DNA of 64,000 nucleotides from an uncultured Gemmatimonadales bacterium (GCA_963783305.1 CAWAMW010000016.1:192001-256000); one strand, 5' to 3'; numbered from the stretch's first letter, positions 18,174-33,100 are shown. Numbers are program-made.

Positions 18174-21100
18174 TCGCTGTTCGTCGAGCTGCTGAACATC
18201 AGGTCGAAGTCGCGGAAGAAGGACGACGCGGTGAAGCTGCGGGACGTCCACACCGTGGACGAGGCGGAGACGGCGTAACGGGCGCAGCGGCGGAGAGCAG
18301 TTCCCGCGCCGCGTGCGGCCGCTCCTCTCCCACCATAAGCCGGGGCGGTCGCCGGCGCACGCATCTGGACGCCGCAGCGGTGTCGATCCATCTTTGTCGC
18401 GGCACACTCGCCCTCCCCCCCAACCCCGGATCCCATGCCCATCACCCACGAGAACGCCCGGAAGATCGTGCGGCGGCTGGCCCGCGGCCGCGATGTGGAA
18501 GGGCTCCCGGAGATGCTGGCGCCGGTCCCGCCGGAGACGCGGCCGATGCCGCCGGCTGTGCCGAGATCGCGGAACTGGAGCGTGGAGGCCACGGCGGAAC
18601 GGGTAGCGTTCTTGGAGGCGCGGGGCGTGGAGCTGGATCATATCGCGGGGCGGGCGGCGCCCATGGATCCGGCGGATCTCCGGGGAAACATCGAGAACCA
18701 TATCGGCACGGCGCAGGTGCCCATGGGTGTGCTGGGTCCCATCCGTGTGAACGGGCTGCACGCGTCGGGGGACTATTACGTGCCGCTGGCCACGTCGGAG
18801 GGCGCGCTGGTGGCGAGCTATGACCGGGGCGCGAAGGTCATGACCCGAGCGGGGGGATGCGCGGCGCTCACCACCACTGAGCACGTGCAGCGGGCGCCCG
18901 GCTTCGTTTTCCGGTCCATGGCCGAGGCGGCGATCTTCGCCCACTGGGTGGCGAGCGAGTTCGACCGGTTCGTGGAGGTGGCGGCGGCGCGCACGGGGCA
19001 CGGCCGCCTGCTGGACCTCTCGGTCCACCTCCAGGGGAACCACGTCTACCTGATCCTGGACTTCCACACGGGGGACGCAGCGGGGCAGAACATGGTGACG
19101 TTCTGCGCGGAGGCCATCTGCCAGGACATCCTGGAGCGGTCCCCGCGTAAGCCCGAGTCGTGGTTCGTGGAGTCGAACATGTCCGGGGACAAGAAGGCCA
19201 CGGCGCTGAGCTTCTCCCGGACCCGGGGTAGGAACGTCACCGCCGAGGTGGTGATCCCGGCGGCGCTGGTGCGGTCGGGGCTGCGCACCACGCCGGAGCG
19301 CATGTGCGAGTACTGGCGTATGAGCTTCATCGGGGGGGTGCAGACGGGGAGCATCGGTGTGAGCGGGCACGTGGCCAACGGGCTGGCGGCCCTCTTCCTC
19401 GCCACGGGGCAGGACCTGGCGTGTGTCAGTGAGGCCGCCGTGGGCGTGACGCGCTTCGAGCTCACGGACGGCGGTGACCTCTACGCCATGGTCAACCTCC
19501 CCAACCTCATTGTGGGGACCGTAGGCGGCGGGACCCGGCTCCCCTCGGCACGGGAGAGCCTCCGGATCATGGACTGCGATGGCCCTGACACCGCGTCCCG
19601 GTTCGCGGAGATCTGCGCCGCCGTCATCCTGGGCGGCGAACTGTCCATCGTGGCCGCGCTGTGCGCCGGTGACTTTTCCCGGGCGCACGAGGCGTACGGC
19701 CGGCCTGGATGAAGGCCCGCCAGATGAACGCGACGCGGCTTCAGAGGCTCCGGACCTACCAGGCCGAGCGGTTTCCGCTCCTGGTGTATGTCCCGCTGTT
19801 CGCCGTGGCCACGTTCGCCGCCGTGGCCTTCTCGTGGGGCGCCCGCCCGGGGAGCGGACCTGGCCCCTTCCCCGTGGGGCCGTGGGCGGTGGGTCTCTTC
19901 ACCGTGCTGGTCCTGTTCTTCTTCCTCCGCGTGCTGGACGAGCACAAGGATGCCGATCAGGACGCCCGCTACCGTCCGGAGCTGCCCGTACCCCGGGGTC
20001 TCGTATCGCTCCGTGAGCTCCGCGTGGTGGCCCTCCTCGCGCTGGCCGCCGCGCTGGCGCTGAACGCCCGGGTGGAGCCGGCGCTCCTGGTGGTGCTGGC
20101 GGCCGTCCTGGCGTGGGCCGGGTTCATGGGCCGGGAGTTCTTCGTCCCCGCCTGGCTCCGGGCGCGACCGGCGTGGTACCTCGTGTCCCACATGCTCATC
20201 ATGCCCCTCATCTTCCTGTATGCGACGGCGCTGGACTGGCTCGTCGCCGGCGCGCCCCCGCCCCCGGGCACCACCGCGTTCCTGGCGCTGGCCTTCTGCA
20301 ACGGCCTGGTCATCGAGGTGGGCCGGAAGGTGCGCCCGCCCGATGAGGAGCGGGAGGGCGTGGACAGCTACACCCGCTCGTGGGGGACGGGCGCGGCCGC
20401 CCTGGTCTGGATCGCCGTGGTCCTCGCGGCCGCCGCGTTCGCCCTCCTGAGCCTGCGGACCCTCACCGGCGCGGCCGGTTTCGGCTCCCCGGGCTCGCCG
20501 GTGGGCGCCGCCCTCGGGCTCGCCGGTCTCGCCCTGGCCGCCACCGTTCCCGGCCTGCTGCTGATGCGCGGCTCGCCCCGCCTCCGGTCCGCCCACATCG
20601 AGGCGGTGTCTGGGGTCTGGGTGCTGGCGTCCTACGGCGTTGTGGGAGCGGTGGGCTGGGCCGCCGGGTCGTCGGGATGATGGAGCCATCCGGGGCGCGC
20701 ACCATCCAGGGATTGGAGGGCCGGGTGAGCGAGCCGTCGCCGGCCACCATTGTCCGGGGTAGCGCGCTGTCGCACCTGGACCCCCGGCGGCTGGGCGGGA
20801 AAGCGGCGAACCTGGCGCGGCTGGAGGCGCTGGGCGTCGCCGTCCCGACCTGGATCGTCATCCTCGCCCCGGCCCCGGGAGACGCGGCGCGCGAGGCCGA
20901 GCCCCGGGCCGAGCTCGCCGCCGCCCTCCGGGACGCGGGGCTGGACGGCCGGCTGCTGGCGGTCCGGTCGTCGGCCGTGGGGGAGGACGAGGCGGGGGCG
21001 TCGTTCGCCGGGCAGTTCGAAACGGTGCTGGGCGTGCCCGGCGGGGATCCGGAGGCGGTGTGGGCCGCCGTGCGGACGGTGCGGGAGTCGGCGTCGTCGG

Positions 21101-30100: not shown

Positions 30101-33100
30101 CCGGGTAGACCCGTCCCCGGGCGGCCGCTCCCGCCGCGCGCCATACCACGCCATGAGGATGTGGACGCCATCCGCAATACCGATCACCAGGATCAGCGCC
30201 GGCAGTGTGGCCATGACCACGTTCAGCGACCCGCCCGTCCACCCCACGATCCCCGTAGTGGCCGCCGTGGCCGCCAGCGGCCCGGCCAGGGTGAGGGCCA
30301 CCGCCGGCAGCGAGCCCAGGATGAGCCAGAGGAGCCCCGTCATGATCAGGAGCGCCAGCCCCAGGAACAGCGCGCCATCCCGCTCCGTCTGCCGGTTCAG
30401 CCCCTCGTAGAGCACCCCCGTCCCCGCCAGCCGGACCTCGTGGCCCGCCGCCCGGAGTGTGCCGTCCAGCGCCGCGCTCATGGCATCCAGGATCGGCCCC
30501 CGCCGCGCGTCCATGTCCCGACTCGGCTCCAGTCGGGCGATGAGCGCCACGACCTCCGGATCCGGCCCCGACAGCCCCAGCCGTTCCAGCACCGGCCTCG
30601 CCGCTTCCGCCCCCGCCGCCCGCACCAGGGCCGCGCCACTGATCACCGTCGCCACCCCCGGGACCGCCTCCAGCGCTGCCGCCGTCCGTTCCTGCAGCGC
30701 CAGCGCCGCCTCATGACCCGATCCCGTTCCGTCACCCTGCCCCGACGAAACGGTCCGGTACGCCACCACCACCGCCTCATCGTTCCCGAACGTGCCCATG
30801 AACTCCCGGTAGCGCACCAGCGCCGGGTCGTCCTCCACGAACCAGACAGCCAGGCTGTTGTCCGTGGGCACCGCCGCCGCCGGCCACGCCAGCACCACCG
30901 TGATCGCGCCCACCACCCCCAGGGCAATCCAGGGGCGGCGCACGACAATATTGATCAGGCGAGGAATCAGAGACATGGCGGTGGGCTCGGGGGGGTGTCC
31001 CCAGTGTACACGCACCGCACGCCCCCGGACAGACTCTCGATGCTGCCCCGCCCCTCCAAACACCCGGCGCGAAGCGCGCGCGTCCAAACAGTCGAGCGCA
31101 GCGAGATGCCCGAACAGCCGAGCCGCAGGCGAGCGACCGCTGTCAAGGCTGGAACCGTCCGCCCGTCGGTCTTATCTTCCCGGCCTTCATGACCACGACT
31201 CCAACGTACCTCCGCGACCTCAATTCCGAGCAGCGCCAGGCGGTCCTTCAGACGGATGGCCCCGTGCTGGTACTGGCCGGCGCCGGCAGCGGGAAGACCA
31301 AGATGCTCGTCCACCGGATCACCCACCTGATCCGGAGCGGCGTGGCCCAGCCCTGGCAGATCCTGGCGGTGACCTTCACCAACAAGGCCGCCACCGAGAT
31401 GCGGGAACGGGTGGCGGCCTTCGCGGGCGACGCGGCCAAGGACGTGGTCATCTCCACCTTCCACTCCCTGGGCGTCCGCATCCTCCGGGAGCACGGCGAG
31501 TCGCTGGGCCTCCCGAAGCGCTTTGCCATCTACGACACCCGGGACCAGCTTGGCGCCCTCAAGACCGCCGCCGCCGAGGTCCACGTCGATGACAGCACCT
31601 TCGACCTGCCCCTGGTGCTCCGGCAGATCTCCGACTGGAAGACCCGCGGCATGTCTCCCGAGCAGGCCCGGGCCGCCGTCATGGCGGAGCAGGGGAGTGG
31701 CACCCGCGCCGACGATTACGCGATCCTCGCCGCCGACACCTACCCCCGCTACCAGGACGTGCTCCGGGCGTGCGGCGCCGTGGATTTCGACGACCTGCTC
31801 CTACTGCCCGTCAAGCTCCTCGAGGAGAACGAGGAGGCCCGCCGCGCCCTCTGGCGACGCTGGCACTACGTCATGATCGATGAGTACCAGGACACCAATG
31901 GCGTTCAGCTCGACATGGCCCGGCACCTGGCTGGAGGCCGCCGGAACCTGTGCGTGGTCGGCGATGATGACCAGTCGATCTACGCGTTCCGGGGCGCCGA
32001 CGTGCGCAACATCCTGGACTTCGAGCACCACTTCCCGGGCGCGAAGGTCATCCAGCTGGTGCAGAATTACCGCAGCACCAAGCGGATCCTGGCGGCCGCC
32101 AACGCCATCATCGCCGCCAACCCGCACCGTCACGAGAAGACGCTCCGGACGGACAACCCCATCGGCGAGCTCATCGACGTCTACGAGCACCAGGACGAGG
32201 TGCTCGAGGCGGAGACCGTCGCCAAGGAGATCGGGCTCCGGCGTTACCGCCACGGCACGAAGTGGAACGACTACGCCGTCCTCTACCGCACCAACGTGCA
32301 GTCGCGGGCGCTGGAGGAGGCCATGCGCGAGAAGGGTGTGCCCTACCGGGTCGTCGGGAGCACAGGGTTCTTCGATCGGAAGGAGATCGCCGACGCCGTG
32401 GCGTACCTCCGCGCCGTGGCGCACCCCACCGACGAGATCGCCGTGCGCCGCATCATCAACTTCCCGACTCGCGGCATCGGCCGCACCACCGTGATGCGCG
32501 TGGCCGACCTGGCGCGTGAACGGGGGCAGGGCTTCTGCAAGGTCCTCCGGCAGGTCACGGACGACGACGTGGGCGCGGCCCAGGCCCGGTCCATCACTGC
32601 CTTCGATGAGATCCTCGACCACGCCCGGCGCGGGCTCCGGAAAGCCGAGGAGCATACCGCCACCTACCCGCCCGGGTCGAAGCTGACCCCCATCGCCGAG
32701 TGGGCCCTCGACTTCTTCCGCGATGGCTGCGGCCTCATCGACGCCATCGCCGACGAGGAGCACCGCGTCTGGAACGTCAAGGACCTCGTCGGCTCCCTCT
32801 CCCGCTACGAGCGGAAGCGCTGGACGGAGCGGCCCGACGCAGAACAGGCCTACGAGGGCCGCCCCGCCCTCGCCCCCGAGGGCTGGGACCCGCCCACCCT
32901 CCACGACGGCCTCGCCCGCCTCGCCCTCGACCAGGAGGATGACGAGGACGACGACGAGGATCTCGACGCCGTCGTCCTGATGACCCTCCACTCCGCCAAG
33001 GGTCTCGAGTTCGAGGAGGTGTTCCTCGTGGGCCTCGAGGAGGGGATCCTCCCGCACAGCCGCTCCATCGCCGAGGCCGCGCCGGGCGACCCGCTGGCGG

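Follow-up and report, generated by a model that had tools for sequence, protein, structure and literature searches.

A conserved bacterial operon headed by a probable FcrA-type acyl-CoA reductase, a candidate route to ether-linked membrane lipids

We know of no enzymes for many of the alkyl ether lipids of bacteria. According to the main text of its description (Grossi et al., 2025; PMC11948995), FcrA, which has an elongated pocket, reduces acyl-CoA of C14 and longer, not HMG-CoA; the authors propose an ether-lipid role for some members and leave open the role of FcrA in many genomes that lack a wax synthase. The same main text, supplement aside, makes no mention of UbiA, kinase, phosphotransferase, prenyltransferase, DUF3419 or betaine. 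Archaeal ether lipid synthesis, described also from FCB bacteria, uses GGGP synthase, DGGGP synthase, CarS and archaetidylserine synthase (PMC7852524), betaine lipids are made by BtaA and BtaB (PMC10685587), and bacterial ceramides by Spt, CerS, CerR and an acyl ligase (PMC11324152). Here we report a gene cluster, of which we found no description in the literature, that offers a concrete and testable answer to what FcrA does in genomes without a wax synthase.

The window, that is the whole 64,000-nt stretch of DNA that was analysed, belongs to a genome (G000) that is 96% complete. All eight genes that a preliminary description had placed here, a five-gene operon faced by three further genes, were found again. 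The plus-strand run, in which successive genes share 4 nt, begins with a reductase of the class I HMG-CoA reductase fold (18435..19712; 425 aa; PF00368, E 3e-108) and continues with a UbiA-superfamily membrane transferase (19709..20680; 323 aa), a dikinase-type phosphotransferase with an ATP-grasp domain, a substrate domain and a swivel-His domain (20677..23373; 898 aa; PF01326 and PF00391), a BtaA-like DUF3419 protein (23370..24500; 376 aa; PF11899, E 4e-63) and a kinase-like membrane protein (24497..25909; 470 aa). Across a gap of 206 nt lies the convergent minus-strand trio of an acyl-CoA ligase (26116..27738; 540 aa; PF00501, E 1e-46), a two-domain GNAT acyltransferase (27726..28727; 333 aa; PF00583) and an MMPL/RND lipid transporter with a sterol-sensing domain (28724..30976; 750 aa; PF03176). 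An ORF at 23336-24406 was rejected as a shadow that matches no family, the true DUF3419 gene being the GTG frame at 23370. The family names, previously thought to rest on weak matches, are strong for the reductase, dikinase, DUF3419 protein and ligase; the UbiA match falls under the Pfam cut-off, yet is confirmed by fold.

The operon is real and conserved, and it is common to many unrelated bacteria. Among 80 genome loci seeded with DUF3419, many of them cut by contig ends, the seven core genes were found all together in 30, from many phyla, and the five-gene order was intact in 26. The kinase-like gene was present in 73 of these loci, the dikinase in 64, UbiA in 54, the reductase in 52, the ligase in 51, the GNAT in 49 and MMPL in 8, and MMPL was also seen in three variant operons (L166, L168 and L172). 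The dikinase adjoins UbiA in 47 of the 48 loci holding both, and the kinase-like gene adjoins DUF3419 in 70 of 71. In 22 of the 30 seven-gene loci the ligase and the GNAT share one strand and one operon with the rest, which upholds their earlier assignment to the pathway. Across the 80 loci no further gene, such as one for a prenyl diphosphate synthase, was kept between phyla, and neither a phosphatase nor a glycerol-phosphate gene was conserved in this DUF3419 form. The reductase was absent from 28 loci, and 12 of the 19 such genomes that were searched, of unstated completeness, gave no match at all; in one of these 12 (L004) six cluster genes lie on a 746-kb contig. In the host's order DUF3419 was found in 17 of 61 genomes, 16 of them above the cut-off; the earlier count of 4 of 30 came from a different sample.

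The lead gene had been taken for an orphan HMG-CoA reductase, a reading that its residues and its place in the tree contradict. The catalytic residues E122, K253, D327 and H418, which correspond to Glu559, Lys691, Asp767 and His866, are kept in all 51 cluster homologues, whereas E246, M296 and F414 stand at the positions of human S684, K735 and L862. The first of these positions is acidic in every cluster copy (Glu in 42, Asp in 9) and Ser in five of five mevalonate-linked controls; the HMG carboxylate-binding Lys735 (we took the residue printed as Lys795 in PMC11948995 to be Lys735 of PMC9500038) is present in none of the 51 copies and in all five controls; and the position of Leu862 holds a bulky residue in 51 of 51, F414 in the window copy, and Leu in the five controls. 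The three FcrA changes thus occur together in 51 of 51 cluster copies and 0 of 5 controls, and both carboxylate-binding residues expected of a mevalonate-pathway class I enzyme, Ser684 and Lys735, are absent. In a quick tree of 36 rows, which did not include the characterised Pb-FcrA sequence, the cluster reductase groups with five proteins bearing a PF25653-type N-terminal domain, as against seven canonical-type rows (SH-aLRT 97). Searches of the 96% complete host genome found no HMG-CoA synthase, no AcnX and a single GHMP kinase, the last of which argues against an MDD gene, at which no separate search was aimed; dxr, ispG and dxs are present, in line with the earlier statement that this genome makes isoprenoids by the MEP pathway and has no other mevalonate genes. 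HMG-CoA synthase scored above the cut-off in 3 of 50 cluster genomes, all three of which carry a second, canonical HMGR, and a wax synthase, absent from the host genome, in 4 of 50. By its sequence, the lead gene very probably encodes an FcrA-type reductase that converts acyl-CoA to a long-chain fatty alcohol, an activity known from a relative only. Given the signature and the tree grouping, the chain made is most likely a fatty alcohol, and the earlier suggestion of a prenyl lipid as the product is not supported.

The UbiA protein matches PF01040 with E 6e-8, and its predicted model (pLDDT 94.5) supports its identity as a UbiA member. The closest fold is the archaeal lipid synthase 6m31 (E 5e-5, TM 0.54), with other UbiA members nearly as good; this match does not tell ether synthases apart from the rest of the superfamily. 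The motif R-x-x-D-E-x-K-D-x-x-x-D was found in 36 of 37 cluster sequences and E-x-x-R-K in all 37. The fold with its Asp-rich metal-binding motif is a feature of DGGGP synthase, but the score against NF009521 is 15.9 bits with a cut-off of 296, and the partner GGGP synthase is not conserved in the 80 loci. UbiA enzymes act on diphosphates that are allylic or activated in some other way, and those of saturated alkyl chains make poor donors. An ether model calls for direct displacement, or else for an alcohol that is allylic; a prenyl donor is possible. In the dikinase, H855 is kept in 74 of 78 homologues and R690 and E691 in 77, the remainder being gaps. Its scores against the curated models for rifamycin phosphotransferase (255.9 bits, cut-off 999) and PigC (243.4 bits, cut-off 1300) are both under the cut-offs. 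We saw nothing to suggest a role as a resistance gene.

For the kinase-like protein the name is weak, as the preliminary description had warned, and comes from hints of motif, profile and fold. None of its 38 members matched a Pfam family pointing to a kinase. E44, R47, K48, H51, D136, E161, G162, D212 and N213 are invariant; the N-terminal half, of the phytol/dolichol-kinase type, matches the N-terminal half of a natural fusion of a kinase-type domain with DUF92 (probability 97%); the fold resembles CdsA (4q2e) at a middling Z of 7.8; and the Atlas assignment to a phytol-kinase cluster (0.86) is a lead only. The C-terminal half, which is missing in Bacteroidota members, is possibly a decayed DUF92: its match to that profile is weak (probability 2.7%, E 0.017) and lacks the acidic motif, although it beats 10 of 10 shuffles.

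The window DUF3419 protein aligns over its full length with BtaA-type paralogues, with differing motifs, and belongs to a separate subfamily. Of the 28 cluster genomes that were searched, 5 also have a DUF3419 gene of another subfamily with a far higher score, in four cases beside a methyltransferase-like gene in the fetched stretch. No BtaB methyltransferase was found in the window operon, nor was one conserved across the 80 loci. The ligase falls in an OleC-related group (NF006754, E 7e-105; OleC, E 5e-66; both under the cut-off). Bacterial CerS is a GNAT, and the GNAT of the cluster is related to a putative ceramide synthase on contig C2 of the same genome (25% identity over 288 aa, E 9e-17), which stands after a serine-palmitoyltransferase-like gene and a reductase; the identity is low, and no Spt is conserved in the cluster loci.

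Fusions and exchanges of modules tie these genes together. Among 67 long relatives of the reductase, the fusion partners were an adenylation domain (9), an acyl carrier (5), an acyl-CoA-binding domain (2), an APH/choline-kinase-type domain (21) and DUF3419 (2), and in P0173 a single chain runs from an adenylation domain and a carrier through the reductase to a kinase-type tail. In related clusters a kinase domain fused to FcrA takes the place of the phytol-kinase-like gene, and CDP-archaeol-synthase-like and phosphatidylserine-synthase-like genes that of the BtaA-like gene. FcrA, dikinase and UbiA are seen again in either form; in the tree the two forms of the pathway use separate FcrA subclades. 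Of 117 loci that hold a core gene, 85 had the membrane kinase and 20 the fused kinase, never together (0 of 105), and 98 had DUF3419 and 12 a CarS-like gene, again never together (0 of 110). These exclusion counts overstate independence, because one locus set was seeded with DUF3419 and the other with the fused reductase, contig ends cut many of the loci, and a number of loci are near copies; the profiles for CarS and CDP-alcohol genes derive from the very loci they detect. Of the 20 fused-kinase loci, 16 retain the dikinase and 10 retain UbiA by profile. The fused kinase is combined with DUF3419 in only four loci, one of which was checked genome-wide, and L220 has neither kinase type within the locus. 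The variant operons hold glycerophospholipid genes, namely CarS-like, PssA-like (6 loci), PgsA/ClsA-like (3) and PlsC-like acyltransferase genes (3), as well as PEMT/ICMT (2), phosphatidylserine decarboxylase (1) and CdsA (1); a GNAT accompanies five of the six PssA-type loci and none of the three PgsA/ClsA-type loci.

These genes are no leftover of mevalonate synthesis, and the earlier view of a separate, conserved lipid pathway, apart from the isoprenoid supply of the genome, is right; taken as a whole, that earlier interpretation is partly supported. We lean, by a small margin over even chances, towards a pathway in which fatty acids are built into an ether-linked membrane lipid by archaeal-type ether chemistry. 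The ligase, whose family is clear, would make acyl-CoA from a fatty acid, and the reductase would use NADPH to turn it into the fatty alcohol, a well supported step. The membrane kinase, whose place is taken elsewhere by a kinase domain on the reductase chain itself, would on that ground probably phosphorylate this alcohol to an alkyl phosphate. The dikinase may then convert alkyl phosphate to alkyl diphosphate, with ATP going to AMP, and on UbiA the hydroxyl of an acceptor may displace pyrophosphate to give an alkyl ether; we rate these two steps jointly as slightly favoured, and an acceptor of the glycerol-phosphate type as falling a little short of an even chance. The BtaA-like enzyme, for which a head-group role is likely, would transfer aminocarboxypropyl from SAM, giving a homoserine head group on a free hydroxyl or phosphate. 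The GNAT would add an acyl chain, with the head-group amine as its most likely target at roughly even odds, and MMPL, an accessory, would export the lipid where present.

Other readings account for parts of these data. A lipid free of glycerol, or a prenyl hybrid, would use the alkyl phosphate itself as backbone, with the head group on its phosphate (alkylphospho-homoserine or -serine) and N-acylation by the GNAT giving a two-tailed, ceramide-phosphate-like lipid, to which dikinase and UbiA would add a further group, possibly MEP-derived polyprenyl. The reductase-kinase fusions suggest alkyl phosphate as a direct product, CarS-like genes stand beside the fused gene, in L183 with no dikinase or UbiA in 22 kb, and both the kinship of the GNAT and the usual prenyl donors of UbiA enzymes would suit; but the dikinase, so constantly beside UbiA, is left with no clear substrate, and the PlsC-like, PEMT and PgsA/ClsA-like genes of the variants fit a glycerol backbone better, so that we consider this reading unlikely. 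Somewhat less likely still is the same ether product reached in another order. Here the fatty alcohol would be activated for UbiA by the dikinase itself, and the exchangeable kinase would come in late, to phosphorylate an ether lipid resembling diacylglycerol; the phosphatidate-like product would then go to CarS or accept aminocarboxypropyl on its phosphate. CTP-dependent diacylglycerol kinases belong to the membrane kinase family, CarS-type enzymes require a lipid phosphate, and a late kinase would account for the constant pairing of the kinase with DUF3419. Against this order stands the fusion of the alternative kinase with the reductase, in one case within a chain of ligase, carrier, reductase and kinase, since it speaks for the alcohol as substrate.

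The remaining readings are far less probable. That a true HMG-CoA reductase supplies mevalonate for a prenyl lipid would agree with the catalytic residues, kept along with R590, D690 and K692 in 51 of 51, and with isoprenoids as the usual substrates of the UbiA and phytol-kinase families; the replaced carboxylate-binding Ser and Lys, the inability of FcrA to reduce HMG-CoA given in the main text of PMC11948995, and the few HMG-CoA synthases, each with its own canonical HMGR, make it very improbable. We give slightly less credence to the synthesis of wax esters or storage lipids, the demonstrated role of FcrA: FcrA and a ligase do form the front end of wax-ester synthesis (PMC11948995, main text), but wax synthases are rare in the cluster genomes and five more lipid enzymes would be left unexplained. 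Equally improbable is ordinary betaine-lipid (DGTS) synthesis, with diacylglycerol and SAM as substrates, among unrelated neighbours, which the BtaA family membership of DUF3419 suggests and against which stand the lack of a methyltransferase conserved in the cluster, the separate, higher-scoring DUF3419 of some cluster genomes, the co-travel of the neighbours across phyla and the two DUF3419 fusions.

Our preferred reading, ether lipid synthesis from fatty alcohols, would most likely amount to a route to ether-linked membrane lipids not previously described. Its extension to a widespread, oxygen-independent bacterial route, in which UbiA turns fatty alcohol diphosphates into alkyl glycerol ethers, thereby joining chains of bacterial type with archaeal ether chemistry, and in which the head groups are exchangeable (N-acyl homoserine in this cluster, types with serine, ethanolamine or glycerol in others), seems to us evenly poised. 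If true, it would be a new way of forming ether bonds in membranes and provide a UbiA enzyme with a non-isoprenoid donor; a large family of dikinases and a subfamily of BtaA would gain a function, and there would be consequences for the biomarker use of ether lipids and for the lipid divide between archaea and bacteria. Should the ether step prove wrong, it would still hold that many operon genes now annotated as HMG-CoA reductase bear the wrong name and that their pathway leads to a lipid not yet described. Cultured strains that bear the cluster include Sphingomonas gei, Sphingomonas deserti, Sulfitobacter undariae, Brevibacillus laterosporus and Roseinatronobacter sp. S2.

Compared with FcrA as described in the main text of PMC11948995, the cluster enzyme shares the fold, the four catalytic residues, the three pocket changes and host genomes without the mevalonate pathway, but lacks the N-terminal carrier domain, has Phe and not Trp at the position of Leu862 and is without a wax synthase partner. 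The dikinase resembles rifampin phosphotransferase and PigC in its three-domain layout, its swivel His and the Arg-Glu pair within its substrate domain, and differs in scores that lie far under the family cut-offs, in extra conserved Arg residues and in its lipid-pathway context. The DUF3419 protein is of the BtaA family (PMC10685587), but SAGDN and NLSDIFEY stand in it for the S-x-GCN and LLD-x-x-DW of the paralogues, and it has no BtaB and other partners. With ceramide synthesis (PMC11324152) the cluster has in common a related GNAT and an acyl-activating ligase, but it has neither a serine palmitoyltransferase nor that kind of reductase, and the host has a separate such operon on C2. As in the routes through AGPS of eukaryotes and some bacteria and through myxobacterial ElbD (PMC11948995, main text), ligase and four-electron reductase would supply a fatty alcohol, and some variants have PlsC-like genes; neither AGPS nor ElbD is in the cluster, however, and the ether would arise by pyrophosphate displacement and not by acyl-alkyl exchange on acyl-DHAP. 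Archaeal ether lipid synthesis (PMC7852524) is matched by the UbiA-fold enzyme and by the CarS-like and serine-transferase genes of the variant operons; it differs in its GGGP synthase and prenyl diphosphate synthase, which are not conserved here, and in its chain, which in this cluster would apparently come from a fatty acid by way of reductase, kinase and dikinase.

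All eight genes named in the preliminary description are present in the window. Five are encoded on the plus strand (18435-25909), namely those of the reductase, UbiA, dikinase, DUF3419 (BtaA-like) and kinase-like proteins, each overlapping the next by 4 nt. Facing them across a gap of 206 nt is a three-gene unit of MMPL, GNAT and ligase genes (30976-26116, minus strand). The DUF3419 gene starts at 23370, and the longer shadow frame is not the gene. Within 25850-26200 no promoter-like or terminator-like site was seen between the converging operons. L,D-transpeptidase, TerC and UvrD genes flank the cluster (15526-18278 and 31189-33339), and a 2461-aa GH94/glycoamylase protein, probably a cyclic glucan synthase, is encoded at 38560-45945 on the minus strand.

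Conservation was assessed in 80 loci, seeded with the DUF3419 protein and many of them ending at contig ends, from Gemmatimonadota, Planctomycetota, Bacteroidota, Alpha- and Gammaproteobacteria, Chlamydiota, Lentisphaerota, Fibrobacterota and others. Seven core genes occurred together in 30 of the 80, in six different arrangements under a stricter score. The cluster is real and conserved, as had been claimed, but its first gene was misread. Taken singly, the kinase-like gene was present in 73 loci, the dikinase in 64, UbiA in 54, the reductase in 52, the ligase in 51, GNAT in 49 and MMPL in 8. UbiA adjoined the dikinase in 47/48 loci, and the kinase-like gene came after DUF3419 in 70/71. TerC was matched in none of the 80, and no further gene conserved across phyla was found among them. 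A DUF3419 match was obtained in 17 of 61 genomes of the order sample. The absence of TerC from the related loci, together with a same-genus relative of the window that is without the searched cluster genes, shows a patchy distribution. The gene set is also borne by Brevibacillus laterosporus and Roseinatronobacter records from a plasmid collection.

The lead gene had been described as an orphan HMG-CoA reductase. In an alignment to human and archaeal structures, the window protein has the four catalytic residues (Glu, Lys, Asp, His) in place, with Glu at the position of Ser684 and Met at that of Lys735, the two residues that hold the HMG carboxylate according to PMC9500038. In all 51 cluster reductases compared (52 matches, one dropped for coverage) Ser684 was replaced by Glu or Asp, Lys735 was never Lys and Leu862 was replaced by Phe, while Ser, Lys and Leu were kept in 5/5 mevalonate-linked controls. 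These are the three positions at which FcrA differs from mevalonate HMGR; FcrA is an HMGR relative that converts acyl-CoA with at least 14 carbons to the alcohol and leaves HMG-CoA unreduced (Grossi et al., 2025, PMC11948995). The residue tests preceded the comparison with that description. In a quick tree the window protein grouped with FcrA-type proteins having an N-terminal domain, apart from seven canonical-type rows (SH-aLRT 97); the first reductase tree, of the quick form, carried long-branch warnings and the second was used instead. By its sequence, then, the window reductase is not a mevalonate enzyme, and the orphan HMG-CoA reductase gives way to one with the FcrA signature. An amine-bearing substrate such as carnitinyl-CoA, first suggested by the Ser-to-Glu change, was dropped because FcrA shows that change too, as do relatives fused to ligase, carrier or acyl-CoA-binding domains.

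Related genes were observed in other settings. Stand-alone Vibrio and Photobacterium 'HMG-CoA reductases' (L083:10001-11263; L087:10001-11152) fall within the group of cluster reductases and show the FcrA residues, and no other cluster gene was found within 10 kb of them. A second FcrA gene, standing alone and with about 60% identity to that of the window, is present in genus g22 of the same order (L140:9053-10330; L141), in some genomes alongside the cluster copy. At L143:8278-15540 and L144, FcrA with the N-terminal domain is part of an operon that also holds a long-chain ligase, an ABC1-type kinase and a gene resembling acyltransferases, or a Get3/ArsA ATPase. A genome of the same family, G051, holds a mevalonate operon (L142:5868-11433) of canonical HMGR, mevalonate kinase, decarboxylase, isopentenyl phosphate kinase and type 2 isomerase. 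On a Sinorhizobium plasmid (L085:5034-14730) an HMGR-like gene, whose product has a cis-loop differing from both HMGR and FcrA, lies among biotin carboxylase and MmgE/PrpD genes.

Fused domains of reductase relatives gave clues to the direction of the pathway. Among the best 150 representatives, 86 were of at least 480 aa, and the 67 of these that were scanned included adenylation (9), acyl carrier (5), acyl-CoA-binding (2), APH/choline-kinase-type (21), DUF3419 (2) and PilZ (15) domains. One chain, P0173, joins an adenylation domain, carrier, reductase and kinase-type tail, another, P0196, joins DUF3419, reductase and kinase, and the kinase motif H, D, N, D is invariant in 36 aligned fusions. 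This order suggests a route from acid through thioester and alcohol to alkyl phosphate. The adenylation fusions, some with a carrier (P0128, P0137, P0140, P0155, P0166, P0167, P0173, P0182, P0193), are laid out like a carboxylic-acid reductase, with a reductase of HMGR fold, and Enterobacter kobei proteins fall within one cluster of them. Several PilZ-bearing relatives (P0143, P0149, P0152, P0154, P0156, P0157 and nine more carry the domain) have Arg at the Ser684 position; the PilZ fusions suggest c-di-GMP control of fatty alcohol synthesis. An FcrA-kinase fusion adjoins DUF6182 and a GH3 ligase at L167:9989-14717, and FcrA adjoins acyl carrier and ketosynthase genes at L160:4520-8553, contexts that may represent further pathways using this reductase.

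The predicted fold of UbiA (pLDDT 94.5) best matched the archaeal lipid synthase 6m31, with other UbiA members nearly as good; the first of its Asp-rich motifs is kept whole, and at the second the sequence is E-x-x-R-K. The dikinase keeps the swivel His and an Arg-Glu pair that lines up with residues 666-667 of 5fbs, which we take to be a rifampin phosphotransferase with these residues catalytic. Further Arg residues are conserved, and the conservation extends to 14 variant copies; conversion of ATP to AMP would suit diphosphate formation. The kinase-like protein had no Pfam family and no Foldseek match at E 0.001. Its N-half finds a match in a natural fusion of a kinase-type domain with DUF92 and a weak one in the CdsA fold, and its C-half, missing in Bacteroidota, may be a decayed DUF92. 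GNAT homologues carried generic names only. The sole GNAT paralogue in the source genome lies in a row of reductase, serine-palmitoyltransferase-like, GNAT and PAP2 genes (L081:6123-10307; contig C2, about 840100-844300), probably a sphingolipid operon, with the layout of ceramide synthesis outlined in PMC11324152. In the cluster, GNAT is present with DUF3419 and, among variant operons, in 5/6 serine-transferase loci and 0/3 PgsA/ClsA-type loci; these small numbers fit head-group amine acylation.

Variant operons carry a kinase fused to the reductase. Scanning metagenomes with the fusion alignment yielded 80 loci, of which 19 had the fused gene, and L069 provided the twentieth; its genome had no membrane kinase match. 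The dikinase was present in 16/20 of these loci and UbiA, by profile, in 10/20, and a divergent UbiA-like gene was seen by eye in three more. A profile screen of 165 loci left 117 with a core gene, drawn from two differently seeded sets in which loci are often cut and some are near copies: 85 had membrane kinase and DUF3419, 9 DUF3419 alone, 4 fused kinase and DUF3419, 12 fused kinase and a CarS-like gene, 4 fused kinase alone and 3 others. The two kinases never co-occurred in the 117, and no locus had a CarS-like gene as well as DUF3419; CarS and CDP-alcohol profiles had been built from the very loci they detect. L220 has neither kinase. Besides CarS-like genes, variant operons hold, by NCBIfam scores under the cut-off, CDP-alcohol transferases whose best score was that of a serine transferase (6 loci) or of a PgsA/ClsA type (3), phosphatidylserine decarboxylase (1), PEMT/ICMT (2), PlsC-like acyltransferases (3), CdsA (1) and desaturases (six). 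This content and the exchanges suggest that the core product is finished like phosphatidate or diacylglycerol, and that kinases are interchangeable in one slot and DUF3419 occupies another, for the head group; only four loci tell the two slots apart.

The genes present, their residue signatures, the fusions and the exchanges were shown and form the base of a pathway in which we infer every reaction past the alcohol. Ligase, FcrA, membrane kinase and dikinase would convert a fatty acid to an alkyl diphosphate, UbiA would transfer the alkyl chain as an ether to the hydroxyl of a glycerol-phosphate-type acceptor, the BtaA-like enzyme would add a homoserine head, GNAT would acylate the homoserine-headed lipid and MMPL would export it. 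We give this whole route a somewhat better than even chance. The main objection comes from chemistry: since saturated alkyl diphosphates are slow to ionise, the route would need either direct displacement or an alcohol that is allylic. Another objection is the absence of the reductase from 28/80 loci and, in 12 of the 19 genomes of this kind that were searched, from the whole assembly (assemblies may be incomplete); no replacement was found in the loci lacking it, read by eye. A scan of the source genome for FarA-type reductases gave 10 matches, partial and SDR-type. The same ether could be made with the kinases acting in another order, which is unlikely, and an alkyl-phosphate lipid made without glycerol, perhaps prenylated, is a doubtful but somewhat stronger candidate.

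The familiar products fare far worse. A mevalonate pathway is very improbable: in 50 of the 52 cluster-bearing genomes (two near copies left out) HMG-CoA synthase scored over cut-off in three, each with a second, canonical HMGR, and MDD in two. The source genome, 96% complete and, judged by its nearest named relatives, probably of Gemmatimonadota, uses the MEP pathway as had been stated (dxs, dxr and ispG found), with neither HMG-CoA synthase nor AcnX found and one GHMP kinase. Wax esters, to which PMC11948995 ties FcrA while noting many FcrA genomes without wax synthase, are extremely improbable, as no wax synthase was found in the source genome and one scored over cut-off in only 4/50 genomes (the source genome and 49 of the earlier 50). 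DGTS is just as hard to credit: the DUF3419 protein is of another subfamily than the BtaA-type paralogues, which occur in 5/28 cluster genomes, and BtaB, which partners BtaA in the system treated in PMC10685587, is missing from the cluster. The proposal of a separate, undescribed lipid pathway stands, but its prenyl product is not supported, the chain made by the FcrA-type lead enzyme being most likely a fatty alcohol.

A full-text literature search, with most subscription papers outside its scope, found no published description of the cluster or of its proposed donor chemistry; DUF3419 is named in 6 papers. The HMGR and UbiA passages of the Lipocone paper, considered as a description, deal with other operons, and the main text of the FcrA paper makes no mention of the cluster partners. 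All the cluster's proteins fall into known superfamilies, and the family of the lead gene was characterised in 2025; as a set they make a strong candidate for an ether-lipid pathway not described before. Among known systems, ether lipids via AGPS or PlsC-like partners have been suggested for FcrA (PMC11948995), and bacteria with archaeal-type ether genes have isoprenoid chains, as described in PMC7852524.
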